Source: a virus (Duplodnaviria; Heunggongvirae; Uroviricota; Caudoviricetes). Taken from it: 64,000 nucleotides of DNA. The DNA lies in IMG/VR virus record IMGVR_UViG_3300037245_002365; one strand, written 5' to 3'. The notes under the pieces were generated by a model, which was not told where the DNA came from, ran no database searches, and saw only the letters and a program-made list of their open reading frames with translations. The translations under genes were made by a program, and so were the position numbers. Numbering within the stretch: the stretch's first letter is position 1; each line of letters begins with the position of its first letter. Shown in pieces: positions 10,859-57,169 of the stretch.

Positions 10859-11229
10859 CTCATATAGAAGAACGTGCAAGAAAAGTCCATAACATACGCT
10901 TTAAATGGAATTCGATTAGACCAAATTATCCTAATCAAGTTTTTCTTAAAGATTTAAGATTAATGAGAGAAAATACAGAATTACTTTTTTACAGGGTTGA
11001 ACTAGTAGGGGCGTTTGAGCTAGAAATAAAAAAGAGACAATTTATTAAAATACAGTTATCTGGTAAATTTATCACAGATACTGGAAGAGATGTCTGGACT
11101 ATTACTACCAGAGATTTAGATGGACTAGAGCATGAGGACGCATTACGAGCTAACGGAGCTGTAAGAAGCCGTAGACATAAAGGTTGGCGACAAGATAAAT
11201 GGATTGCACTTAATACTGAAATAGTCTAA
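10855..11229 (+). CDS. Tandem paralog family member (array B)
   Basis: NQVFLKDLRLMRENTELLFY ... KRQFIKIQL ... GWRQDKWIALNTE. Confidence 0.75.
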   Translation: MTHIEERARKVHNIRFKWNSIRPNYPNQVFLKDLRLMRENTELLFYRVELVGAFELEIKKRQFIKIQLSGKFITDTGRDVWTITTRDLDGLEHEDALRANGAVRSRRHKGWRQDKWIALNTEIV

Positions 11230-13492: not shown

Positions 13493-13707
13493 GCAGAAAC
13501 CCAAAAGTTAAGAAAAGTGCAGCTACCGAGCAACGCTTAGAAGACTTAGAGATTAAGAAACAGCAGCTAATGAAGATGATATCAGAGAAGCAAAAAGAGT
13601 TAAACAAACTCAACGATGAATTTAGAGAATGTTATACTGAGATGGATAAGCTAGAAGGCTGGGAACCTTGGGAACTTGAAATGCCCACTTATAGGGATAG
13701 GAACTAA
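13489..13707 (+). CDS. Coiled-coil small protein
   Basis: 72 aa, heptad-rich. Confidence 0.5.
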   Translation: MSRNPKVKKSAATEQRLEDLEIKKQQLMKMISEKQKELNKLNDEFRECYTEMDKLEGWEPWELEMPTYRDRN

Positions 13708-14072
13708 TGAGCAGACCACATAAAACCATGGGAAATTACTCAACCAAGAAACCTGACCATGTAGGTCAGCTTTTTCTTAAGGACTTAAAAAAGCTCCCCT
13801 ACAATACAGAGTTAATAGCTCATAATCCAGACGAACTTGTTAACATACAGTTAATAGGAATGAGATATGAGCCTTATGATGAAGTGGTATTTGGTGTTGA
13901 AGCACCTAAAAGCTCTAATAATTGGTTCATACACTTCAGACGCTTAGACGGAACAGAAGGCGCTAGATTGTCTTACTCTGCAGGGTTATCACGAGCAGGT
14001 AAGAACGCGAATGGCACTCTTGTTGGCAAATGGATACAAGACAGATGGATAACATTGAAGGATAACACATGA
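13707..14072 (+). CDS. Tandem paralog family member
   Basis: GQLFLKDLKKLPYNTELIAH ... WITLKD. Confidence 0.75.
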   Translation: MSRPHKTMGNYSTKKPDHVGQLFLKDLKKLPYNTELIAHNPDELVNIQLIGMRYEPYDEVVFGVEAPKSSNNWFIHFRRLDGTEGARLSYSAGLSRAGKNANGTLVGKWIQDRWITLKDNT

Positions 14073-14389
14073 GTATATTAGAACGTCAAAGATCCATTTA
14101 TAAAACTAGTAAACCAAATCATCCAGGCCAACTAACCCTGAAAGATATAAAAAATCTTCCATATAACACTGAATTAACATGGAATCATCCATCAGGTGTT
14201 ACACATATACAATTTATGGAAATTGAATTTGTACAAAAACATGGTTGGAAAGTGTACTTTAGGTATGAAGATGGTAAAAGAGACAGCAGAAAACTGGACT
14301 CTCTTGGAGCAGCACGAGTACTTAAAAAAGGATCAAGCAGTCGTGCAGGCAAATACTTACAAAACGGTTGGATAACATTGAAGGAATAA
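14069..14389 (+). CDS. Tandem paralog family member
   Basis: GQLTLKDIKNLPYNTELTW ... WITLKE. The upstream TLKD codons (AAGGAT) supply its RBS. Confidence 0.75.
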   Translation: MSILERQRSIYKTSKPNHPGQLTLKDIKNLPYNTELTWNHPSGVTHIQFMEIEFVQKHGWKVYFRYEDGKRDSRKLDSLGAARVLKKGSSSRAGKYLQNGWITLKE

Positions 14390-14393
14390 AAAT

Positions 14394-15008
14394 ATGAAAT
14401 GGTTTATAGTATCAATAAACTCAATGGACGTGCGTGAAGGTAAAGCAGACATGCATATTACCAACTACAAAGTAGTTCCGAAGGAACTATTAGTAAAAAG
14501 ATTTGACTCAGAAATTTCAGATTTGCGATGGATAGAAACAAAAGATTATACAGCAGGCGGTGGCCAAGCATCTGGAACTATGATAATGTCCGATGGGAAA
14601 GAATTTATCATCACGTATAACTGGAAGGGCGTAAGTCAGCCTGAAAATTTCCGTGCTCATAAAACCTATACGATATTGGTTAAGGGTGAGGGAATTGAAG
14701 AATATATGAAGAAGTATATTAAACAGATTATTGCCGATGAAGGTAAACCCGAAACTGGTATTGTATTTGATTTTGCAAAAGAGATAGAACCGTGGAGATG
14801 TTTAGAGCACCCCTTCAGGACTTTTTGGCGTGGAATAAGAAATGACTTCAATACGTTAATATGGGGATATTCTTACCGATTTAAACACTATTGGCGAGGT
14901 ACTTTACCGAATGAGAGTTATGTGCGGTCGCTAGGAATGAAAACATATTCCTTTGTCATAGCGCGAATGAAAAGAAAGCAATCAGCCAAAGAAGGAGAAT
15001 TATCATGA
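14394..15008 (+). CDS. Hypothetical protein (204 aa)
   Basis: Follows the TLKE-encoded AAGGAA RBS. Confidence 0.6.
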   Translation: MKWFIVSINSMDVREGKADMHITNYKVVPKELLVKRFDSEISDLRWIETKDYTAGGGQASGTMIMSDGKEFIITYNWKGVSQPENFRAHKTYTILVKGEGIEEYMKKYIKQIIADEGKPETGIVFDFAKEIEPWRCLEHPFRTFWRGIRNDFNTLIWGYSYRFKHYWRGTLPNESYVRSLGMKTYSFVIARMKRKQSAKEGELS

Positions 15009-29844: not shown

Positions 29845-30037
29845 TGAAAAAGATATTCAAGAGGATATGCCAGAACTACGTATATGTAGTAAATGCAAAT
29901 CATTAGTTAATAAACTGTATGGTTTGATGGTCCCGCACTTGTGTAAACAGTGCTATGACAAAATGGTGCAATATCAAGAACAAGTTGATTATAGATGCAG
30001 CTTATGTAAACAAATTTATGCAAAATGTTGCTGTTAA
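29831..30037 (+). CDS. Cys-rich small protein
   Basis: CSKCK...CKQCYDK...CSLCK. Confidence 0.45.
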   Translation: MQNHDEKDIQEDMPELRICSKCKSLVNKLYGLMVPHLCKQCYDKMVQYQEQVDYRCSLCKQIYAKCCC

Positions 30038-30065
30038 TATAGAAGAAGTATTAGAGGATAAAAAA

Positions 30066-30863
30066 ATGAGTGATAAAACGTCTCTCGGAGACAGAATGAA
30101 AATATATGAGAAACTTAACGCTACAGCGTTGATGCCTCATTTACCAGTAATAGCAAGGATTGATGGCCGGGCATTCCATACATTTTGTAGGGGCTTTGAT
30201 AAGCCTTTCGATATGAGAATGGTAGCAGCCATGCAATCAACAACGGAATTTATATTTAATGAATTCAATCCTATGTTTGCACATACATTCAGTGATGAAA
30301 TAAACCTAATGTGGTATTATCCAGAACCTGAACAACAAATGGTGTTTGGTGGAAAAATACAAAAACTTTGCTCAGTGCTAGCTTCAGCAGCTACACTTAG
30401 GTTCAATGAAGCAAAACTGGAACTCTTTGAGGGTAATCCAATTGCTGAAAGAAAAGCAATGTTTGATTGTAGAGTATGGAATGTACCTACAACAGATGAA
30501 GTAGCTAACTACTTTGTATGGCGTGAACAAGATGCAGCTCGTAATAGTTTACAGATGCTTTCAAGAGCACATTATTCACACCATGAGTTGGAAGGCAAGA
30601 AACAGGCTGACATGCACGAGATGTTATATAAGAAAGCCATTAATTGGAATGAACAGCCGATGATATTAAAAGCCGGTAGTTATTACAGACCGAACCCAAC
30701 AACTCCTGCGGAACTTGTAAAATCTCGATATCCAATGCTTGATGGAAGCTTACTGAACCTGCCATATAGTACGGATGGTAAAACTCCACATGAGCAACGA
30801 CTAAGATTCATATTTAGACCAGAAGAAAGGGAATACGATGGCACAGAAAAGAAAGCTGAGTGA
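30066..30863 (+). CDS. Thg1-like protein (tRNA-His guanylyltransferase family, 3'-5' nucleotide addition)
   Basis: VIARIDGRAFHTFCRGFDKPFDMRMVAAMQ...FAHTFSDEINLMWYY matches the Thg1 core VVVRLDGRNFHRF...YGQSDEYSFVF. Start placed at the ATG after a GAGGA RBS. The ORF track shows an upstream extension. Confidence 0.6.
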   Translation: MSDKTSLGDRMKIYEKLNATALMPHLPVIARIDGRAFHTFCRGFDKPFDMRMVAAMQSTTEFIFNEFNPMFAHTFSDEINLMWYYPEPEQQMVFGGKIQKLCSVLASAATLRFNEAKLELFEGNPIAERKAMFDCRVWNVPTTDEVANYFVWREQDAARNSLQMLSRAHYSHHELEGKKQADMHEMLYKKAINWNEQPMILKAGSYYRPNPTTPAELVKSRYPMLDGSLLNLPYSTDGKTPHEQRLRFIFRPEEREYDGTEKKAE

Positions 30864-39204: not shown

Positions 39205-39864
39205 ATGTTTCGCAAGTATGAGAAAACATATCGCATACTTGTTCCTCAGATTAACGTCAAAGGAAAGCACTTCCTTTCCAAAGACGAGATGCGCGCATTA
39301 CTTGGCGGGGAGGTAACCCTTCTCGAAAAGTTAGACGGCGCTAACACTGGCATTATCCCAACGCGAGACTGGTTCCGTTTGCAAAAACGGGGCTCTCTCG
39401 TGGATGCCAGTGAACATCATCAATTTAATTTTTTTAAAGCATGGTCTGAGCAGAACTATGAAAAGCTGATCGATATACCAAAACATTATAGGGTGTATGG
39501 GGAGCTTATGCGCTGTGTACACACAGTAAACTATAATAAACTTCCAGATTGGTTTGTAGTATTTGGTATCTTTGATACTAAATTAATGCAATACTTAAGC
39601 TGGAATAATGTGATAGCACTTTGTGATGGATGGGGACTTAGTACAGTACCAACCATAGCAAATGGTGTTCACGTAGAAAAAATGGACCTTTTCAACCTAA
39701 TACCAGATGTATCAGGTTATGGGGACGAGGCTGCGGAGGGCCTTGTAGTATGGAACTACAGAAGACAGATGAGAGGCAAACTTGTAAGAGAAGAATTTGT
39801 TAAACATATGGATAACTCCGGTCACTGGATGACCAAGGAGTTGAAATTTAACTCTTTGATTTAG
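39205..39864 (+). CDS. Rnl2-like RNA ligase, nucleotidyltransferase domain only
   Basis: N-terminus MFRKYEKTY matches the T4 Rnl2 N-terminus MFKKYSSLENHY. Motif I is EKLDGAN (KxDGxN). At 219 aa it lacks a C-terminal domain. Confidence 0.55.
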   Translation: MFRKYEKTYRILVPQINVKGKHFLSKDEMRALLGGEVTLLEKLDGANTGIIPTRDWFRLQKRGSLVDASEHHQFNFFKAWSEQNYEKLIDIPKHYRVYGELMRCVHTVNYNKLPDWFVVFGIFDTKLMQYLSWNNVIALCDGWGLSTVPTIANGVHVEKMDLFNLIPDVSGYGDEAAEGLVVWNYRRQMRGKLVREEFVKHMDNSGHWMTKELKFNSLI

Positions 39865-41222: not shown

Positions 41223-41404
41223 TTTCAAAGATTAAAAAAGTTATTCTAATATATGACTGTGAATATTTAGAAGAAGAGGTAGAAGTTGAAATTACTGATA
41301 ACATTGTATTGTCAGAGTATACTCGTGGATTAGATGTGATTGCTGAAGTGTATTGTTCGTGTATGCGTTTACACAAATTCATACTAAAAAAAGAAGAACG
41401 ATGA
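41219..41404 (+). CDS. Hypothetical small protein
   Basis: 61-aa ORF coupled to its neighbours. Confidence 0.4.
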   Translation: MISKIKKVILIYDCEYLEEEVEVEITDNIVLSEYTRGLDVIAEVYCSCMRLHKFILKKEER

Positions 41405-42564
41405 AATTTACACACGACAAATTACAAGAGTATATAGATAAGAAAATGCTGATGCGACAGAAGCATCCAGTATTCGATTACTATATCTATAACTATACTC
41501 CAGAGGTACAATTTAAGAAACTCTGGAACCCTACGCTTATGGCATGTAGAGGCCTAATTTTGGATGGAGACAGCAATGTTATTGCTCGACCATTTACTAA
41601 GTTCTTTAATTACTCTGAATTAGGACCATCTGCAAGAGGAACACTCAATAGACGGGTTAGTGAAGTCTACGAAAAAATGGACGGTAGCTTGGGTATAATG
41701 TACCCCCACCCTGGTTTTGAAGAGTTTAGTATTGCAAGCAGAGGAAGTTTTACCTCTCCGCAGGCACTATTCGGTACTGATTTATTGAATAATAAATACA
41801 GGAAGTGGACTAAACATTTTAGATATGAACCAGAAAATTTCCCAGAGAACAGTATTTTTCTAGCAGAAAAAACAGTAATTTTTGAGATAATTTATCCCGA
41901 AAACAGAATAGTAGTTAACTATGGCGATATGGAAGATATGGTTTATCTAGGTGTTGTTGAAAACAGTACCGGAAACGATCTTTATCCAGTAATAGAAAAA
42001 GACTGGCCCTTTCCTGTTGTTCGTAGATACACAGAATTAGAAAACCTCACTATGGATGAATTGGTAGAGCGTGTTAACAACCACGAAGATTACGGTAATA
42101 ACCGTGAAGGTTACGTGGTAAAATTTAAGAACGGCTCTCGAACCAAATTGAAATATCCTGATTATATCAGGTTACATCGAATAATGACTGATATGAGTGA
42201 GAAACGAATTCTTGAAGCAGTGATCCAAGGACCGCTGTCTGAAGAATTCTTGGATGGTGTTCCAGATGAATGCTATGATTGGCTGAAAGATGTAGAGAAA
42301 CGATTCAGAGCTGAATACGAAACAATCAAATTATCTTGCCAGCTATTCTATCAACAGTGCCAATTAAAACAGATAGGGGACGCACCAAAGTTCACCAGAA
42401 AAGATTGGGCATTAGCATTTCTTAAGACGCCTTACCCAGCAGTGCTATTTAATATGCTAGATGGAAATGATTATTCACCAGCGATTTGGGCCAAAATTGA
42501 GCCTAAACCCGGAAAACAAACCTTTCAGACGTCTGGATATAATAGAACTAAAGAAAAGACTTGA
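41401..42564 (+). CDS. rnlA: RNA ligase 1 (T4 Rnl1 family)
   Basis: LMACRGLILDGDSNVIARPFTKFFN ... EKMDGSLG ... IASRGSFTSPQA aligns with T4 Rnl1 [27 protein letters not shown] ... KEDGSL ... KSKGSIKSEQA. Start placed at the ATGA overlap. Confidence 0.7.
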   Translation: MKFTHDKLQEYIDKKMLMRQKHPVFDYYIYNYTPEVQFKKLWNPTLMACRGLILDGDSNVIARPFTKFFNYSELGPSARGTLNRRVSEVYEKMDGSLGIMYPHPGFEEFSIASRGSFTSPQALFGTDLLNNKYRKWTKHFRYEPENFPENSIFLAEKTVIFEIIYPENRIVVNYGDMEDMVYLGVVENSTGNDLYPVIEKDWPFPVVRRYTELENLTMDELVERVNNHEDYGNNREGYVVKFKNGSRTKLKYPDYIRLHRIMTDMSEKRILEAVIQGPLSEEFLDGVPDECYDWLKDVEKRFRAEYETIKLSCQLFYQQCQLKQIGDAPKFTRKDWALAFLKTPYPAVLFNMLDGNDYSPAIWAKIEPKPGKQTFQTSGYNRTKEKT

Positions 42565-42863: not shown

Positions 42864-43346
42864 ATGATTGATTTACAACAGTTTGTAAGATTTATACAAA
42901 GCGGCGGTGCTGCATATGATGGCTATGCTTATGGCTATGGTCGTGAACAACGTGGCCAAGCCATATATGAAATAAGAATCCATCCAGAAGATTTTGAAAC
43001 GCTTCGAGAGCAGCTTGCTAGAGCTTACGGAGGTATGCCTATGTATCAACATGACCCTTATGGACGTCAAGATACCTACAGACAAATTATGGGCCAAAAC
43101 TTCCAAATAGATAATAATATAGCTATCGGAAGTATAGGTGTTTTTTTTCGACCGCCACAACAAATAGAATTGAGTGGTCCAACAGAAAAACCGAAGGAAC
43201 CACCAGTATCTATGAAAGAGGTTTGTGATAGTATGATACAGACTTTAACAGAAGAAACAAAAGACATGAACTACCTGAAAACGACAGTAGCTGATGTACA
43301 GCCTATAAGAGGAAGGATGCCGAACGATGAAGAGAGGGTATTTTGA
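42864..43346 (+). CDS. Hypothetical protein
   Basis: 160-aa ORF directly after the tRNA. Confidence 0.55.
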   Translation: MIDLQQFVRFIQSGGAAYDGYAYGYGREQRGQAIYEIRIHPEDFETLREQLARAYGGMPMYQHDPYGRQDTYRQIMGQNFQIDNNIAIGSIGVFFRPPQQIELSGPTEKPKEPPVSMKEVCDSMIQTLTEETKDMNYLKTTVADVQPIRGRMPNDEERVF

Positions 43347-43764
43347 AATAGGGATTATAAATGGCAAAGATAAGGCTAATATAGGTACTCTATGGCGCTC
43401 TGCATATCAATTAGGGGCATCGGGTATTTTCACAATAGGTGCTAGATACTCACACCAAAAAAGCGACACAACAAAAGCTATAAAACACATACCATTAAGA
43501 CAGTACGAGACGTTTGAAGAATTTATGAAGATCAAACCGAAGGAAGCACGCTTAATCTGTGTAGAAACGGGAGGCTCACCACTAAAAAGGTTTGTACATC
43601 CTACTTCTGCAATATACTTATTAGGCGCGGAAGATACAGGTATACCAGAGTATATACAAGTCGAGAGCGACTACATTATTTCACTACAATCTGTAAATAT
43701 ATCATCATATAATGTATCTGTAGCAGGAACCTTAGTTATGTATGACAGGATGTTTAATAAATAA
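43327..43764 (+). CDS. SpoU/TrmH-family RNA 2'-O-methyltransferase
   Basis: IGIINGKDKANIGTLWRSAYQLGASGIF matches the SPOUT motif (PEN-GN-GTL-RSA-AFGA) and is followed by LLGAEDTGI. Confidence 0.6.
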   Translation: MKRGYFEIGIINGKDKANIGTLWRSAYQLGASGIFTIGARYSHQKSDTTKAIKHIPLRQYETFEEFMKIKPKEARLICVETGGSPLKRFVHPTSAIYLLGAEDTGIPEYIQVESDYIISLQSVNISSYNVSVAGTLVMYDRMFNK

Positions 43765-43776
43765 CCAAAAATTAAA

Positions 43777-44211
43777 ATGATTAAAGATCATTATGTTGCA
43801 GGCTTTGTCTTTGACAAAGAACTAGAACATATCTATTTAATTAGAAAAAACAGACCAAGTTGGCAGGAAGGCTTGCTAAATGGAATCGGCGGACACATAG
43901 AGGCTAATGAGTCTCCACTATCCGCAGTGGTTAGAGAGTTTATAGAAGAAACTGCCACTAAAGTAAATGCAGAAGATTGGCATCATATTGCTACCATATC
44001 CAGCAAACCAGATAAAACTTCTGGATTCCCATGGGAATGCTGGTTTTTCATGGCAGTTACTGGACAGACTCCAGTAACCAATACAGATGAAGAAGTTGTT
44101 AAAGTTAGATTAACTGACTTACATGATGGGGACGTAATACCAAATTTAAACTGGTTAATACCTTTAGCACTGCATGGTGAGAAAAGTTGGCCAGTGATAG
44201 CAAATGAGTAA
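43777..44211 (+). CDS. Nudix hydrolase
   Basis: Nudix box GGHIEANESPLSAVVREFIEETA (Gx5Ex7REUxEExGU). Confidence 0.7.
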   Translation: MIKDHYVAGFVFDKELEHIYLIRKNRPSWQEGLLNGIGGHIEANESPLSAVVREFIEETATKVNAEDWHHIATISSKPDKTSGFPWECWFFMAVTGQTPVTNTDEEVVKVRLTDLHDGDVIPNLNWLIPLALHGEKSWPVIANE

Positions 44212-44221
44212 AGGAACATAA

Positions 44222-44653
44222 ATGATATTTTCAGCAGGTGTGATGATCAGAAGAACATCCGATAATAACGTTTTAATATGTCGACCCCTCATGGGTAAGA
44301 CAGCACGCTCTTTTCCAAAGGGAGAAGTTGATGACGGAGAAACTTACGCCCAAACAGCAAAAAGAGAAACTTTTGAAGAAACAAATATAGACCTTCCATT
44401 AGAATCTCTAAAGTATATGGGTCAGTTTAAATATGTTAAGAGAAATAAAACTATCGTTCTATTCTCTGCAACAATAGATGACAAGGATTTACCGGATGAG
44501 CTTATTTGCTCATCAACGTTCCAGCTAAAGGGCAAAGGCCCTCAGTTACCAGAAGTAGATAAATTTGAATGGGTAACCATTTCAGATGCTATCGAACTTG
44601 TGCATGAAGCACAATCAAGGGTCGTTAAGAATTACGTGACAGAAAAAATGTAA
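44222..44653 (+). CDS. Nudix hydrolase (second copy)
   Basis: Nudix box GEVDDGETYAQTAKRETFEETNI. Confidence 0.7.
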   Translation: MIFSAGVMIRRTSDNNVLICRPLMGKTARSFPKGEVDDGETYAQTAKRETFEETNIDLPLESLKYMGQFKYVKRNKTIVLFSATIDDKDLPDELICSSTFQLKGKGPQLPEVDKFEWVTISDAIELVHEAQSRVVKNYVTEKM

Positions 44654-46127: not shown

Positions 46128-46709
46128 ATGAAAGTTAAATGTAAATACTGTGAAATAGAATTCGACAAGAGACCGGATCAAGTTAAAAAATACAAAAATC
46201 ATTTTTGTAGTAGATCACACGCCGCGTCTTATAATAATAAGATTCACCCAAAATGTAGTTTCGACGGTATTAAAAATGTCTACTGTTTAGATTGTGAAAA
46301 ACCACTTAAGCATAAAACTCACCCTAGAAAAAAATATTGCAATCAGCAGTGCCAAATGAGTTTTCAACACAAAGAGTACATCAGAAGATGGCTCATTGGG
46401 GAAGAAACGGGTAATAGGTGTAAGACTGAGGTATCGATTTCGAAACATGTACGTAGATGGATTTTTGAAAAATATGACAACAAATGTTGTAAATGTGGTT
46501 GGGATAAGATTAACACAACTACGAATAAAATACCACTACAAGTAAGTCATATTGATGGGAACCCTTATAATACAATACCAGAAAATTTAGAACTTATATG
46601 CCCAAATTGCCATTCTTTAACTCCTACGTTTGGAGGACTGAATACAGGTAACGGCAGAAAATTAGAGAGCAATAAGGAAAAATATAGAGCATCGGGCCAC
46701 TGGGTGTAG
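46128..46709 (+). CDS. HNH homing endonuclease (free-standing)
   Basis: Cys-rich CxxC pairs. HNH core ...HIDGNPYNT...NLELICPNCH. The last ~8 codons overlap tRNA-Asp. Confidence 0.7.
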   Translation: MKVKCKYCEIEFDKRPDQVKKYKNHFCSRSHAASYNNKIHPKCSFDGIKNVYCLDCEKPLKHKTHPRKKYCNQQCQMSFQHKEYIRRWLIGEETGNRCKTEVSISKHVRRWIFEKYDNKCCKCGWDKINTTTNKIPLQVSHIDGNPYNTIPENLELICPNCHSLTPTFGGLNTGNGRKLESNKEKYRASGHWV

Positions 46710-47091: not shown

Positions 47092-47747
47092 TGAAGATTG
47101 TAGCGATTGCAGATACACATATGCTCCATAATGACTTGATGGTCCCCGAGGGTGACCTACTTATCCACGCAGGAGACATGTGTACATATGGTAGAGAAAA
47201 TGAAGCTAGAGAAACTGCCAAATGGTGGAAATCCTTACCCCACCCTCATAAAATCTATGTTCCAGGAAATCATGATGTATCAATATATGAAAATCGTAGT
47301 TTAAGAGAATTATATGAGGATGAAAATAGCCACGTCTTAATTGACGAGGCTCTAGAAATTGATGGGATTAAGTTTTGGGGTAGCCCATGGACGCCAGAGT
47401 TTTGTGGATGGGCATTTATGCTACAAAGGGGCGGAGACGTACTAGCAAACAATTGGGCTGCTATTCCTGATGACACTGACGTGTTAATTACCCATGGCCC
47501 ACGCTTTGGGTATGGAGATAGAAACGAAGAAAATCTTCCAGTTGGGTGTGAAGCACTAGCTTGGCGGCTAGAGCAAATGCCTGATTTGAAGTACCATATC
47601 TTCGGACACATCCATACAGATTATGGTATAAGAAGATTCAATAACACCTCTGTTATAAACGCTTCTATACATGAGGGTACGTGGAAACACCACGACTTTA
47701 CCCCACCTATTGTTTTTGAGTATGGAGAAGAACCCCATTATGGGTAA
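47091..47747 (+). CDS. Calcineurin-like metallophosphoesterase
   Basis: Motifs IADTH, GDMCTYG, GNHD, GH-H. Confidence 0.7.
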   Translation: MKIVAIADTHMLHNDLMVPEGDLLIHAGDMCTYGRENEARETAKWWKSLPHPHKIYVPGNHDVSIYENRSLRELYEDENSHVLIDEALEIDGIKFWGSPWTPEFCGWAFMLQRGGDVLANNWAAIPDDTDVLITHGPRFGYGDRNEENLPVGCEALAWRLEQMPDLKYHIFGHIHTDYGIRRFNNTSVINASIHEGTWKHHDFTPPIVFEYGEEPHYG

Positions 47748-47898
47748 GAAAAAAATAAAACCGCCTAAGTCAAAATCTTTGACTAAATATCCGATACCAC
47801 CTACTACAAGAGAGGAAGATACCTCGAAACACACTAAAAAAGAGCGGCGGGAAAATAAAAAAGATATGAAGAATATTGAAATTGATTCAGAATAATTG

Positions 47899-47981
47899 GC
47901 CCTGCAGCATTGTGGCATAAATGCGCTAAACTAAGCATGCCCATGGTTTAGAGATATCGGTTCGAGTCCGTTCAGGGTTCA
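47899..47981 (+). ncRNA. tRNA-like element with canonical acceptor, D and T arms but an oversized anticodon region
   Basis: Acceptor GGCCCTG/CAGGGTT. D-arm GCAT-x10-ATGC. T-arm ATCGG-TTCGAGT-CCGTT. A 6-bp stem CTAAAC/GTTTAG encloses a 14-nt loop. Confidence 0.35.
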
Positions 47982-47984
47982 AAA

Positions 47985-48292
47985 TTACCAGGGGACACAC
48001 AATGCATCTGAGTATGGATGGTAATTAACATACAAAAGGATGTAGCGCCCCACCTAACACCCGCAACGGGTGTCGAAGACGCCACGTTACCCACAGTGGC
48101 GCAACTATCTCAGCCGGACCGGGTCTAAGGCCCGGATAGCAGAGATAGATTCTCAGGCCGATATTGCCTGAAAGAAAGTAAAGGGTCAGCAACTGGCAAA
48201 CGGATGATATGGTTAACGCTCGACGTTATTAAAGTTTTGGATCGCTAAGACGCCTATCAGCCCGCCGGTTGTTGACCCTCACTACCTCTATT
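47985..48292 (+). ncRNA. Candidate structured non-coding RNA (GC-rich, many hairpins)
   Basis: No ORF. Hairpins ACACCCG-CAA-CGGGTGT, CGCCAC-x10-GTGGCG, CCGGG-TCTAAGG-CCCGG, and AATTACCA...TGGTAATT. GC content clearly above the flanks. Confidence 0.3.
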
Positions 48293-48365
48293 GAGCTGTA
48301 GCATAACTGGCAATGCACCGGTCTGTTAAACCGGGTTATAGGAGTTCGAAGCTCTTCGGCTCAGC
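48293..48365 (+). tRNA. tRNA-Asn (GTT)
   Basis: Acceptor TGAGCTG/CGGCTCA. D-arm GCAT-AACTGGCA-ATGC. Anticodon stem CCGGT/ACCGG with loop CTGTTAA. T-arm AGGAG-TTCGAAG-CTCTT. Confidence 0.7.
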
Positions 48366-48395: not shown

Positions 48396-48671
48396 ATGGA
48401 AATAAACAGTACGAAAGACGGAAAATTTTATGTCAGGGATACAGAAACCGGCAGACTATTCCTAGTAGAACCACTAGGGTTTGACAAAGTAGGTTGGGGT
48501 GACATTGACCCTGCTACGAAAAAGGTTCAAGGTGATTACGGTCAGAAACATATAGGCTCAGTATCTGAGAAAAATAGTGTTGTAACAGAAGATAACGGAT
48601 TCAAAAATATTATAGACGTTGGTCCCGGCGAAAGCCCATTTGCAGCGATTGAAAAATTGCTAAAGAAATAA
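48396..48671 (+). CDS. Hypothetical protein
   Basis: 91-aa ORF. Confidence 0.55.
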   Translation: MEINSTKDGKFYVRDTETGRLFLVEPLGFDKVGWGDIDPATKKVQGDYGQKHIGSVSEKNSVVTEDNGFKNIIDVGPGESPFAAIEKLLKK

Positions 48672-49337: not shown

Positions 49338-49832
49338 ATGAAAGTTAAATGTAAACATTGTGAAATAGAATTTGATAAAAAACCTAATCAAATAAAAAAA
49401 GATAAGAATAATTTTTGCTGCAGATCTCATGCTGCAATTTATAATAATAAGATGTACCAGAAGAGGGCACCAACTAAGTGGCGTTGTATGGATTGTGATA
49501 AAAAAGTAAGCCACGGATCAAAACGCTGCCAAGGCTGTAAACGAATAGATGCTCTTAAAATTTATAATTCTCACACTATAGAAGAAAAAGTATATAAAAA
49601 AGGCGATGCTTCTTTAAAATTTGTATATATACGCAAGCATGCGGGAATAGTTCTTGAGTTAGAAAATAGAAAAAAGAAGTGTGAGGCGTGTGAATGGGAT
49701 AAACATGTCCATGTAGCACATATAAAAGCATTAAGCAGTTTTGATCTAACAACAAAAATTGGTGTAGTAAATGCACCAGAAAATTTAAAGTATCTATGTC
49801 CCAATTGTCATTGGGAATTTGATCATAATTAG
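49338..49832 (+). CDS. HNH homing endonuclease (paralog of 46128)
   Basis: First ~50 nt about 90% identical to the 46128 gene (MKVKCKHCEIEFDK). HNH core CPNCHWEFDHN. Confidence 0.7.
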   Translation: MKVKCKHCEIEFDKKPNQIKKDKNNFCCRSHAAIYNNKMYQKRAPTKWRCMDCDKKVSHGSKRCQGCKRIDALKIYNSHTIEEKVYKKGDASLKFVYIRKHAGIVLELENRKKKCEACEWDKHVHVAHIKALSSFDLTTKIGVVNAPENLKYLCPNCHWEFDHN

Positions 49833-51133: not shown

Positions 51134-51171
51134 AAAATTAGTCTCGCTCAGAAAGCTGGGCGAGATAAATA

Positions 51172-51348
51172 CGGCGGGTAGCTCAAATTGGAGAGCAGCC
51201 ACTAAAGGAGCTTACTGAACGGATCGTTAATAACGAGGGCGATCTAAGGGTAGGGGTTACCGAATATACGGACGGATGTCCAAAACTCGTGGTAACTTTA
51301 AGCAGAGATTAGTGAGCACGGATGCTGGTTCGAGTCCAGCCCCGGCGA
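51172..51348 (+). ncRNA. tRNA-like element: 5' acceptor plus D-arm, and 3' T-arm plus acceptor, separated by about 120 nt
   Basis: CGGCGGG-TA-GCTC-AAATTGGA-GAGC at 51172-51197. GCTGG-TTCGAGT-CCAGC-CCCGGCG-A at 51324-51348. Confidence 0.3.
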
Positions 51349-51420
51349 CAAGTTCCCAAAGTACCTCTCCGCGGCTCAGTGTGAGGACTAGCGATGGAAG
51401 TTCGCTCTTTGGGATAATTA

Positions 51421-51541
51421 GGGCCTAATAGCATAACGGATAATGCACTTGATCAGCGTTGAGCCAGAAGTCTGAAATTGTGTACAAAGTTTAGAATAAA
51501 CTTCTGAGGGAAATAGATGGGTTCGACTCCCATTGGGTCCA
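51421..51541 (+). ncRNA. tRNA-like element with an enlarged anticodon region
   Basis: Acceptor GGGCCTA/TGGGTCC. D-arm GCAT-x8-ATGC. T-arm ATGGG-TTCGACT-CCCAT. The internal 7-bp stem CAGAAGT/ACTTCTG encloses a 28-nt loop. Confidence 0.3.
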
Positions 51542-51961
51542 CAAATTACAAGCGGTAGGCTTAGAAGTAGCCATCCTTAATAAGTGAGGTAGCGTACCGA
51601 TGGTGGCCTTGCGCTGCTTGAGGGATGCATTGCGCTTTGCTTCTTGGGTGTAACAACATGCTTGTTAAAATTGGATTAAATAATGTCAGGTAGGGGCCTG
51701 ACGGATACATATAGCACCGGTATGGTGAATAGGAACGCCCGAACGATCAGTAAATATCCGGTATCCCCGGAGGCGTACAAAATGCCTATCAATCGGTTGA
51801 AAGTCTAAGGAAGTGAACTAACGAATAGATCTTCTGGGATGTCGGCGGAAACTGAAAAGTTAGTAGTCAGGTTGTAAATAAAACGTTAATATAAAATACA
51901 ACTGAACGAGTTATATGTCAAAATGTCGTCTTTAGGCATTATTTAATCTGATTAAAATTGA

Positions 51962-52157: not shown

Positions 52158-52838
52158 ATGACAAAACGTAGAAGCAAAGCATTACGCCTTAAAAAGAAAC
52201 AGAAAGAAGTACTGGATTTTGACCGTCAACTCACAGAGATATACAAAAGGCAAAACAATCCTAGAAGAGTCAAATTAGATAAACCACATAATGTTGGCTG
52301 GCAAAAAATATGGCATATTCGTAAAGATCGTGGATTGCTTGAAGAAGAAATAGACGCTATCCAAAATTACTTGGACACCTGCACCTATTTACACTGGGCA
52401 AGAAAAAAATCAAGATTGACGGCGGAAGTACCAAGGGTTAAAATCTATCTGACTAAAAAAGACTTAAAAGCTTTACCAACAAAAAAGGTTAAATTACTTT
52501 TTGATACAGACTGGATGGCATTCCTTGCAAACAAACGTTATCGAATAAGTGACTATGCTTACAGACAATATTTCTGGACAGAGATAATACATTACCGAGT
52601 TAATGAAGCTGCCGAGTTTGATCCAAGGCTCGAAAGTAGGAAGTACTTTTTGCATAAGAGGCTCTATGGCGAAGGCCAGTGGAGAAAGTTCGCCGGTCGA
52701 GACAATGGCGGCGGTAAAGACCACCACTGTTTAGGCGAAAGCCGTTGTGCAGAGCACTACCATAGAAAGGCTGATAAAAAAATAGCTAGAGTAGAAATTA
52801 ACGAAGCAGTACAAGATATAATCGCACCGATTGAATAG
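52158..52838 (+). CDS. Hypothetical basic protein (226 aa)
   Basis: ORF with a GAGG RBS. Confidence 0.6.
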   Translation: MTKRRSKALRLKKKQKEVLDFDRQLTEIYKRQNNPRRVKLDKPHNVGWQKIWHIRKDRGLLEEEIDAIQNYLDTCTYLHWARKKSRLTAEVPRVKIYLTKKDLKALPTKKVKLLFDTDWMAFLANKRYRISDYAYRQYFWTEIIHYRVNEAAEFDPRLESRKYFLHKRLYGEGQWRKFAGRDNGGGKDHHCLGESRCAEHYHRKADKKIARVEINEAVQDIIAPIE

Positions 52839-52859
52839 GTGATGGCTTGCAGTAATAAT

Positions 52860-53185
52860 GGATCGTACCCCGAGCTAACAAGGTTAGCATGGCCCTGTAC
52901 TACGATGATTATTACACCACTTGTGGGCAAACTAGATAGCAAAACAGGGCCAAAGAATTAAACATGACAGTAGGACATATTCGCAGATAATGCTGAGGCT
53001 CAGGATGTCTATATAATCCCGTCCGCTGGCAGTAGCAATTAAAAATAGGTGACACTCCTTTGGCAAGGGGTGGTGTACTAGTAAACGGTGGAATAACATA
53101 TCTCGCGGGGTCTTATGCCACCCCGAGGCAACGGATTAGGAGTGCCAACTCTATGCCCTGCCTCGGCTTGATGCCACAATTAAAT
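52860..53185 (+). ncRNA. Candidate structured non-coding region
   Basis: No convincing ORF. Hairpins GCTAAC-AAG-GTTAGC, GGCCCTG...CAGGGCC, CTGAGG-CTCAG, GGGGTGG...CCACCCC, CCGAGGCA...TGCCTCGG. Confidence 0.25.
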
Positions 53186-53260: not shown

Positions 53261-53274
53261 CAAAAGAATTAAGG

Positions 53275-53397
53275 GGAACGCTGGCAAGGAGTTAATATTA
53301 ATAAACCTCTACATTATCAGAATGTGGCGAGCCGGGCGATCTGATCACTCGCTGTCCGATGGACTATTGGGAGTTCGACTCTCTTCTTCCCCACCAA
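53275..53397 (+). ncRNA. tRNA-like 3' end (GGGAG-TTCGACT-CTCTT-CTTCCCC-A-CCA) with a possible far-upstream acceptor GGGGAAC
   Basis: T-arm and 3' CCA seen directly. 122 nt is too long for a canonical tRNA. Confidence 0.25.
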
Positions 53398-57103: not shown

Positions 57104-57169
57104 TGTAATGTAGCTCAGCGGACAGAGTCCCCGGCGGGGGAGACACGAGTTCGAATCTCGTCATTACGG
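57104..57169 (+). ncRNA. tRNA-like element with a truncated anticodon arm (66 nt)
   Basis: Acceptor TGTAATG/CATTACG. D-arm GCTC/GAGT. T-arm ACGAG-TTCGAAT-CTCGT. Only a TCCCC-GGCG-GGGGA hairpin where the anticodon arm should be. Confidence 0.35.

Follow-up and report, generated by a model that had tools for sequence, protein, structure and literature searches.

A structured non-coding RNA of about 205 nucleotides embedded in the tRNA cluster of an uncultured jumbo phage

A non-coding slot before tRNA-Asn encodes a strongly folded RNA

The window analyzed here is the whole 64,000-nucleotide stretch of Caudoviricetes DNA recorded as IMGVR_UViG_3300037245_002365 in IMG/VR. It forms part of the metagenomic contig Ga0484852_0000003 (JGI 3300043172; ~228 kb), of which identical copies exist in two further samples, and its genes mark it as a jumbo phage, uncultured and without a cultured relative. 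Between 42.7 and 57.3 kb, ARAGORN and Rfam locate 12–13 transfer RNA (tRNA) genes on the plus strand, interspersed with small open reading frames (ORFs). Our subject is the stretch at 47981–48291 within this cluster (region 1), which lies between a pseudo-tRNA and the gene for tRNA-Asn(GUU) and encodes a new structured RNA of a known kind, the small RNAs that phages carry within their tRNA clusters. A first reading of the sequence (in the following, the original prediction) had singled out 47985–48292, together with a block at 51134–51960 (block 2) and a stretch at 52860–53185 (region 3), as GC-rich and hairpin-dense regions free of ORFs between tRNA genes. Their position between tRNA genes, as mapped by ARAGORN and Rfam, is correct, and all three are situated on the tRNA strand.

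For region 1, the remainder of this description was likewise borne out. The content of guanine and cytosine (GC) amounts to 0.498, rising to 0.519 in the core at 48078–48283, as compared with 0.377 for the window and 0.39–0.40 for the flanking ORFs. ORFs of more than 55 amino acids (aa) are lacking in region 1, and each of its six reading frames is interrupted by several stop codons, among which more than one type is represented; the same is true of all frames in all regions, which excludes a recoded ORF. Moreover, a tblastx comparison of the regions with the relatives described below found nothing. Perfect hairpins are formed by the segments ACACCCG/CGGGTGT, CGCCAC/GTGGCG, and TCAGGC/GCCTGA, and further pairing involves CCGGGUC/GGCCCGG as well as a long-range helix of 15 bp. 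The minimum free energy (MFE) of the plus strand is −116.9 kcal/mol versus −82.9 ± 4.7 kcal/mol for dinucleotide shuffles, which corresponds to z = −7.2 with none of 100 shuffles folding as well; the minus strand reaches z = −4.7. When 46.5–54.2 kb were scanned in sliding segments of 150 nt, the three segments over 48000–48299 (z = −4.5, −3.5, and −5.9) constituted the strongest run of the cluster, and segments dominated by tRNAs scored between about −3 and +1. The G·U pairs of the core indicate that pairing takes place at the level of RNA and not between inverted repeats of DNA. A repeat or miniature inverted-repeat transposable element was considered and rejected: neither BLAST nor R1, a covariance model built from the core, finds a second copy in the window. 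A consensus scan for a sigma-70-like promoter and for a plus-strand terminator inside region 1 revealed none.

From 5′ to 3′, region 1 comprises the hairpins H1 and H2 and the core at 48080–48284 (~205 nt), which consists of the hairpins H3, H4, and H5 and the long rod H6 (Table 1). The 15-bp helix of H6 is formed by GGGUCAGCAACUGGC and GCCGGUUGUUGACCC. The preceding pseudo-tRNA scores 31 bits with the Rfam tRNA model (gathering threshold 29), under permissive filters only, and is called by ARAGORN only if the intron option is combined with a lowered threshold.

Conservation of the structure in relatives

Relatives were sought via the flanking proteins in a collection of 5.8 billion proteins, and the informative loci are designated L006/L007, L008, L023, and L024. 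L006 is a contig of 84 kb with a metallophosphatase 78% identical to that of the window, and L007 is a second contig with the same protein; L008 spans 2.2 kb (metallophosphatase 80% identical), and L023 and L024 are short contigs. The more distant loci L025–L036 are without the tRNA cluster. By BLAST, the window and L008 are 82% identical over 48092–48158, which corresponds to the H3–H5 core, with ~78% identity in the neighboring coding DNA and 91% in tRNA-Asn. In L008 the core is located directly 3′ of an ORF stop codon, and folded alone this locus adopts the same succession of H3, H4, H5, and H6 (z = −4.2). L024 begins inside H4 and keeps H5 and H6; 3′ of H6 it continues with a GC-rich hairpin and a tRNA-Asn other than that of the window. 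When the window, L008, and L024 are folded independently by MFE, each yields the same H6 rod, around a tip of 66, 48, and 24 nt, respectively, and H4 adopts the same fold in the window and L008 with one compensatory change from A-U to G-C.

Structure conservation was then quantified in an alignment of the three cores (window, L008, and L024) that was fitted by hand to the independently predicted folds and padded gap-free for pair counting. Standard pairs occupy 97.2% of the 107 pair cells, and 15 of the 44 pairs have changed on both sides. H6 accounts for ten of these (out of its 19 pairs), H5 for four (out of its five pairs, in L024), and H4 for one. If the 3′ letters are shuffled, 5.5 ± 1.9 changes on both sides arise and none of 500 trials reaches 15; if the partner is slid by 1–3 columns, 0–3 such changes and a pairing of ~35% remain. 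The paired cells include eight G·U and no A·C combinations, and consequently the helices work only in the RNA of the plus strand, which is the strand of all tRNAs. As far as three sequences and a hand-fitted alignment go, the secondary structure of the core is kept by compensatory substitutions in its homologues. Strand-specific stability and compensatory changes thus support, for region 1, the idea of the original prediction that a structured and probably stable RNA resides inside the tRNA cluster of a phage, as it does in T4-like phages.

The surroundings of the core are mosaic. L006 and L023 share with the window only the H1 and H2-like modules and the GC-rich hairpin. H1 is common to the window and L006, where it is placed 3′ of the metallophosphatase stop codon, and H2 is the partial counterpart of the GC-rich hairpin CCCCUUUCGA..GCCGCAAGGC..UCGAAGGGGG in L006, L023, and L024, for which covariation is seen at three pairs. 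The slot 5′ of tRNA-Asn is occupied in L006 and L023 by an unrelated X domain of ~150 nt with a closing helix of 12 bp, followed by a tRNA-Asn of a third kind; the whole L006 stretch including this domain folds with z = −3.2. Altogether, three unrelated tRNA-Asn(GUU) genes are found in the same slot, at 48292–48365 of the window, at 10925–11012 of L006, and at 138–212 of L024, whereby the version of L006 and L023 measures 88 nt versus 74–75 nt for the other two. The pseudo-tRNA is unique to the phage of the window and absent from L008 and L006. A CUGAUGA motif in the X domain of L006 was inspected as a possible hammerhead core and dismissed: the motif is part of a plain hairpin, and the hammerhead models give no match. 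In the search for further members, R1 matched only the three known ones in 735 kb of retrieved sequence, and pattern scans of viral, metagenome, and genome contig collections returned nothing or matches lacking the helices, which are at chance level because R1 rejected all of them. Region 1 and block 2 were also compared with 50,697 phage records by megablast and blastn, with no match.

Table 1. Coordinates of RNA elements and selected genes in and around the tRNA cluster
Feature	Coordinates	Strand	Description	Evidence
Pseudo-tRNA	47898–47980	+	Acceptor, D, and T arms; 6-bp "anticodon" stem closing a 14-nt loop	
Hairpin H1	47985–48024	+	UUACCA...UGGUAA, then UUAAC	Alignment, fold
Hairpin H2	48057–48073	+	ACACCCG-CAA-CGGGUGU	
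Helix H3	48080–48101	+	CGCCAC/GUGGCG, C/A-rich loop of 10–14 nt	Six pairs invariant, window versus L008
Helix H4	48105–48148	+	7-bp stem CUAUCUC/GAGAUAG, A·A mismatch, GC/GC step, A-rich internal loop, GC-rich tip hairpin	
Hairpin H5	48154–48170	+	CAGGC/GCCUG; CCCUU/AAGGG at the same place in L024	
Rod H6	48176–48284	+	Outer helix of 3–4 bp, then 15-bp helix around a variable tip	
tRNA-Asn(GUU)	48292–48365	+	Starts 7 nt after the end of H6	ARAGORN, Rfam
tRNA-like chassis	51172–51349	+	Acceptor with conserved G3·G70 mismatch, D arm, T arm; structured insert of ~105 nt replaces the anticodon arm	
Three-way-junction RNA, 59 nt	51355–51413	+	Closing stem CCCAAAG...CUUUGGG, two hairpins	z = −2.3
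Second expanded tRNA-like element	51421–51542	+	7-bp acceptor stem, T arm, long extra arm	ARAGORN with intron option; z = −2.1
Non-coding stretch, 419 nt	51543–51961	+	Ends at tRNA-Met	z = −2.9, local segments near 0
Conserved RNA at the start of region 3	52844–52955	+	Homologue at L006 16782–16918	
tRNA-like element, 124 nt	53273–53396	+	Encoded 3′ CCACCA, expanded D region, long extra arm, 9-nt "anticodon" loop (8 nt in L006)	
Additional tRNA	57104–57169		Just 5′ of tRNA-Pro; not among the ARAGORN calls	Rfam, 40.9 bits
ORF, 51 aa, lysine/arginine-rich	47740–47895		Overlaps the metallophosphatase stop codon (ATGGGTAA)	No Pfam match
RNA repair/modification gene set	29955–30863, 39205–39864, 41353–42564, 43327–44653			Pfam calls
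HNH-like ORFs	46128–46709, 49338–49832; L006: 11076–11206, 18138–18337, 20496–20651			

Interpretation and rival explanations

We propose, with a rough probability of 0.55, that the plus strand of 48080–48284, possibly along with the hairpins from 47985 onward, encodes a non-coding RNA of ~205 nt outside Rfam that is co-transcribed with its neighbors, excised, stable, and active in trans. Region 1 displays the layout of the stable RNAs known from tRNA clusters, as it is non-coding, situated on the tRNA strand, and abuts a tRNA within a phage cluster. Because the tRNAs and ORFs are all on the plus strand and an internal promoter or terminator is missing, the RNA would be transcribed as part of the tRNA/ORF polycistron. 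Excision could then be accomplished by host nucleases for tRNA processing: a cut by RNase P at the 5′ end of tRNA-Asn (48292) would generate the 3′ side of the RNA, and a cut by RNase Z or RNase E after the pseudo-tRNA (47980) or in the A/U-rich linker would generate its 5′ side. In the released molecule, the H6 rod, which pairs the J5/6 segment with the 3′ tail, might shield the ends from exonucleases, and the product would be a stable trans-acting RNA.

Several points weigh against this proposal. As the homologues are few and our data consist of sequences, everything beyond a conserved structured plus-strand RNA is what we infer, namely co-transcription, the processing route with its cleavage sites, stability, and action in trans. 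The alignment holds the sequences of three closely related phages, one of them truncated; the fitting by hand of H5 and H6 to their folds inflates the pair counts, and H3 and most of H4, being invariant, say nothing for or against the structure. Moreover, the H6 tip varies freely in length between 24 and 66 nt, and neither R1 in 735 kb nor the pattern scans of public collections uncovered a further member. Finally, L006 and L023 fill the same slot with the unrelated structured domain of ~150 nt, so that the slot may matter more than the particular RNA inside it, which favors a role in cis.

Such a role represents the main rival explanation. Region 1 would then be only a cis-acting spacer of the tRNA transcript that provides processing sites for RNase III or RNase E, protects the 5′ end of tRNA-Asn, or insulates the folding of neighboring tRNAs from each other, and the excised piece would be degraded without having a function of its own. 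It is in keeping with this explanation that the slot always contains a structure closed over a long range, yet not the same one (the four-helix RNA in the window, L008, and L024; the X domain in L006 and L023), that the length of the H6 tip is free to vary, and that H6 forms a duplex of roughly 20 bp with interruptions and looks like a substrate of the RNase III type; RNase III cuts such duplexes, as established from the processing signals of T7 and T4. However, 205 nt and four distinct helices far exceed what a processing site needs, and the loops and junctions of H3–H5 (GCAA, AGCAGAG, AAGAAnGU) are 82% conserved and thereby at least as well as the adjacent coding DNA. Furthermore, L024 carries an extra hairpin between the RNA and a different tRNA-Asn gene, and thus the RNA travels independently of the tRNA. 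We consider a mere spacer to be a possibility worth keeping in mind, albeit a doubtful one. It is improbable that region 1 is non-functional debris, in which decayed tRNA genes, hairpins, and recombination scars have been left behind in the tRNA cluster as homing endonucleases drove the shuffling of cassettes and in which GC richness and hairpins are a legacy of former tRNAs. This explanation can draw on the mosaic character of the region, where the pseudo-tRNA is private to one phage, H1 and H2 are shared with L006 and L024 in varying combinations, one slot is taken by three unrelated tRNA-Asn genes among the relatives, and HNH-like ORFs with repeated 5′ ends are interspersed with the tRNAs. 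Decay, however, produces neither compensatory double substitutions, as found at 15 of 44 pairs, nor G·U without A·C combinations; the z value of −7.2 is well beyond that of segments with intact tRNAs, and the core contains no T-loop or other tRNA signature and no Rfam tRNA match.

Membership in a known family is still harder to reconcile with the results. The covariance search of Rfam 15, conducted at gathering and permissive thresholds on the window, the isolated regions, and the relatives, retrieved tRNAs only, and region 1 therefore belongs to no family catalogued there. In the isolated 311 nt, no group I intron, transfer-messenger RNA (tmRNA), RNase P RNA, signal recognition particle (SRP) RNA, 6S RNA, ROOL, GOLLD, or ribozyme was matched at E ≤ 10, and a literature search for a described equivalent found none. 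Consequently, the group I intron, tmRNA, and RNase P RNA that had been named as candidates at the outset find no support. We regard it as very unlikely that region 1 is a group I intron in remnant or miniature form or represents a different self-cleaving or self-splicing ribozyme: phages are rich in group I introns and the compact, GC-rich architecture with multiple helices would suit one, but neither 47981–48291 nor 46.5–54.2 kb nor the relatives match Intron_gpI (RF00028) at E ≤ 10. In addition, region 1 interrupts no tRNA or protein gene: the pseudo-tRNA and the tRNA-Asn on its two sides are both complete, which leaves no exons to splice. The motif GCAGAGAUAG, which we presume to bear a loose likeness to J6/7–P7 of tRNA group I introns, served as a lead only; its GCAGAGA pairs with CUAUCUC in a plain covarying hairpin stem, at which position L024 has AACGGAGG. 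A P3–P7 pseudoknot is not evident either, and a length of 205 nt equals or undercuts even the smallest group I introns known. Hardly any credence is due to the idea of a tmRNA, RNase P RNA, SRP RNA, or Y-RNA-like element that has diverged. What could be cited in its favor is that tRNA-like pieces adjoin region 1, that ARAGORN at a lowered threshold reports a "permuted tmRNA" at 51259–51712, and that phages with a 59% identical homologue of the 91-aa ORF (48396–48671) encode a normal tmRNA. Against this, ARAGORN detects no tmRNA with default settings, the Rfam tmRNA model (RF00023) recognizes only T arms of 17 nt with 12.9 and 5.6 bits (gathering threshold 47), the permuted model RF04321 yields 11.2 bits at E = 7.5, and the G3·U70 pair and a tag reading frame are absent from 47981–48291. 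The "permuted tmRNA" itself is sub-threshold and was discarded, as the call fuses parts of two separate tRNA-like elements and L006 lacks its "coding piece". RNase P, SRP, and 6S RNAs have no match at E ≤ 10; for bacterial RNase P RNA, the Rfam models represent the P4 pseudoknot and the conserved regions CR-I to CR-V. With 205 nt, the core is also shorter than even the smallest known RNase P RNA of bacteria, of ~276 nt. The YrlA model attains 27 bits instead of the required 69, and this on tRNA-Met only.

Further RNA modules of the cluster

The original prediction had treated the three regions as one class, which proved wrong: block 2 consists mainly of expanded tRNA-like genes and a three-way junction, and region 3 is not unusually stable. 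Block 2 is indeed GC-rich (0.443), much of which is due to two tRNA-like genes missed by standard ARAGORN and Rfam searches. Its supposed density of hairpins was confirmed only in part: the two halves of 51134–51961 fold modestly better than chance (z = −2.7 and −2.9), but local segments of 150 nt are near 0 with the exception of the hairpin at 51137–51170.

The chassis at 51172–51349 is called by ARAGORN with the intron option, and its homologue at 13671–13851 of L006 obtains 34.5 bits with the Rfam tRNA model over 181 nt. The two copies are 73% identical and differ by five compensatory pairs. According to ARAGORN, their "anticodons" diverge (Leu-GAG in the window, Asn-AUU in L006), and the chassis is hence not a decoding tRNA with an intron. 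The invariant segments ACGAG...CUCGU could form a pseudoknot, and as a whole the element looks like a natural "tRNA scaffold". The adjacent three-way junction differs from L006 at only two positions, both of which keep the predicted pair, versus 73% identity in its flanks. It is thereby the most conserved non-coding element of the cluster, more conserved than the tRNAs, and has no Rfam match. Of the second expanded element, which is not present in L006, Rfam finds the T arm of 17 nt only. The 419-nt stretch that follows has no BLAST match in the relatives.

In region 3, the elevated GC content (0.467) was confirmed, but the density of hairpins was not: the fold of 52839–53185 has z = −0.5, with 30 of 100 shuffles folding as well. 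At its start lies a conserved RNA in which a helix set comprising GUAAUAAU/AUUAUUAC and AUCGUA/UACGAU crosses the helix GGCCCUG...CAGGGCC. In comparison with L006, six of the 25 RNAalifold pairs are compensatory, all in one helix set, and GGCCCUG/CAGGGCC is invariant; the latter helix is selected by the MFE folds of both copies. Taken together, the predicted crossing helix sets suggest a pseudoknot. The RNA is located downstream of tRNA-Met genes, from which it is separated in the window by a 226-aa ORF (52158–52838) that L006 lacks. The tRNA-like element at 53273–53396 is 84% identical to 17932–18059 of L006, and its stem CUACA/UGUGG covaries to CUACG/CGUGG. Its CCA end is encoded, in contrast to tRNA-Asn and the other cluster tRNAs for which the 3′ flank was read.

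The "anticodon" loops of the four unusual tRNA-like elements measure 14 nt (47898–47980), ~105 nt (51172–51349), at least 27 nt (51421–51542), and 9 or 8 nt (53273–53396). As they possess acceptor, D, and T arms yet no anticodon loop of 7 nt, they are tRNA-like but not tRNAs. A shared start motif AAUUAC(C/A)(A/U)G after tRNA-like 3′ ends was considered as well and abandoned, as it occurs twice and is not enriched. Overall, the number of uncatalogued RNA modules in this cluster is unusually high.

Relation to known systems

The closest likeness is provided by the RNAs rnaD (species 2, 119 nt) and rnaC (species 1, 139 nt) of phage T4, which lie on the tRNA strand within the tRNA cluster, after tRNA-Arg and with spacers of 1 and 6 nt. 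Like the RNA of region 1, they are non-coding and absent from Rfam. Furthermore, rnaC is strongly structured (z = −4.6) and itself has the form of an enlarged tRNA-like molecule, including a T arm and a terminal stem, in which it resembles the elements at 51172–51349, 51421–51542, and 53273–53396; the homing-endonuclease gene segB of the T4 cluster also has probable counterparts in the HNH-like ORFs of the window. On the other hand, the RNA of region 1 measures ~205 nt, lacks a T arm, is placed 5′ of its tRNA, and is composed of three hairpins and a rod. When rnaC and rnaD were compared with 42–58 kb of the window, L006, and L008 by blastn (word size 7) and nhmmer, no match was obtained at E ≤ 1, and we thus regard the relation as an analogy of kind and not as membership in one family. 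To our knowledge, the species 1 and 2 RNAs of T4 have been known for fifty years without a function.

Other RNAs that can be compared differ more strongly. ROOL and GOLLD, large ornate RNAs of phages and prophages, are described as "often near tRNA islands" (PMC12286853), and together they mark phage tRNA islands as a hotspot for elaborate RNAs. With ~580 nt for ROOL and more than 800 nt for GOLLD and many pseudoknots, they are distinct from the mostly nested RNA of ~205 nt in region 1, and their Rfam models match none of the three regions at E ≤ 10. In YrlA, a tRNA-mimicking RNA bound by Ro60/Rsr, a tRNA-like module is fused to a further structured domain; the RNA occurs close to RNA-repair genes in bacteria and in some phages (PMC4201824). 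The window offers a parallel in its many RNA-repair genes (two RNA ligases, Thg1, SpoU methylase, NUDIX proteins). On the other hand, the YrlA matches obtained here are all sub-threshold and fall on ordinary tRNAs, and the ends of YrlA are located at the Ro-binding stem instead of the acceptor stem.

Release by flanking tRNAs is a further precedent: a non-tRNA RNA located next to or inside a tRNA fold is excised by RNase P and RNase Z and stabilized by the tRNA shape, as in the 3′ETS-leuZ small RNA sponges of Escherichia coli, the tRNA-miRNA units of the gammaherpesvirus MHV68, and engineered tRNA scaffolds. The chassis at 51172–51349 bears the likeness of a natural tRNA scaffold; none of these precedents is a phage system with this sequence, and a corresponding processing is here only presumed.

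More speculatively, and in our judgment unlikely, the tRNA cluster might constitute an operon of several new RNA families that rely on borrowed tRNA-processing machinery and of which at least one plays an active role. Its members may include the four-helix RNA of 205 nt, the chassis with its conserved and possibly pseudoknotted domain of 105 nt at the site of the anticodon arm, the nearly invariant three-way junction of 59 nt, and the pseudoknot-like RNA of ~110 nt. The active role could be that of a ribozyme, of a decoy for tRNA-targeting nucleases of the host, or of the RNA half of a ribonucleoprotein with the adjacent lysine-rich protein of 51 aa, and the unusually rich set of RNA-repair genes might be linked to it.

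What is new here is a well-folded RNA family outside Rfam that is supported by covariation, along with the observation that, in one lineage of uncultured jumbo phages, at least four additional conserved RNA modules, including two tRNA-like chassis with large inserts, are interspersed with the tRNAs. If expressed, these modules would be compact and tractable candidates for elucidating the function of such RNAs and would illustrate how RNA processing guided by tRNAs occurs in nature. Should they be spacers only, a modest point of annotation remains, namely that standard tools miss tRNA-like genes and structured spacers.

Neighboring genes

Genes of RNA repair and modification are dense around the tRNA cluster and comprise a Thg1-like tRNA-His guanylyltransferase, two RNA ligases (one with PF09414, one of the T4 Rnl1 type), a SpoU methylase, and two NUDIX hydrolases. 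For the RNA ligase, protein matches reach 36% identity at best. Within the ~37 kb covered by Pfam calls, neither a polynucleotide kinase nor RtcB was recognized, and a Ro60/TROVE gene is likewise missing there.

The 51-aa ORF is present in the window and in L008, both of which carry the four-helix RNA immediately 3′ of it, and absent in L006 with its other domain. The lysine-rich protein could be considered as a candidate for an RNA-binding partner. Weak, sub-threshold matches to HNH endonucleases occur in ORFs with repeated 5′ ends that are scattered among the tRNA genes. These ORFs are probably free-standing homing endonucleases, comparable to segB of the T4 tRNA cluster, and could drive the cassette-like mosaicism of the tRNA cluster.

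The 91-aa ORF downstream of tRNA-Asn (48396–48671) has its 59% identical homologue on the contigs L031–L036, which encode a standard one-piece tmRNA of ~369 nt. This tmRNA (e.g., 3309–3677 in L031) carries the tag GAAHTHIVTSKSTFSVAGTVVENEVFVA and is positioned a few hundred bases 3′ of the homologue. In L006, an ORF with multihaem cytochrome c motifs (14021–14656; Pfam Paired_CXXCH_1) is located inside the tRNA cluster, where it represents an unusual auxiliary gene.

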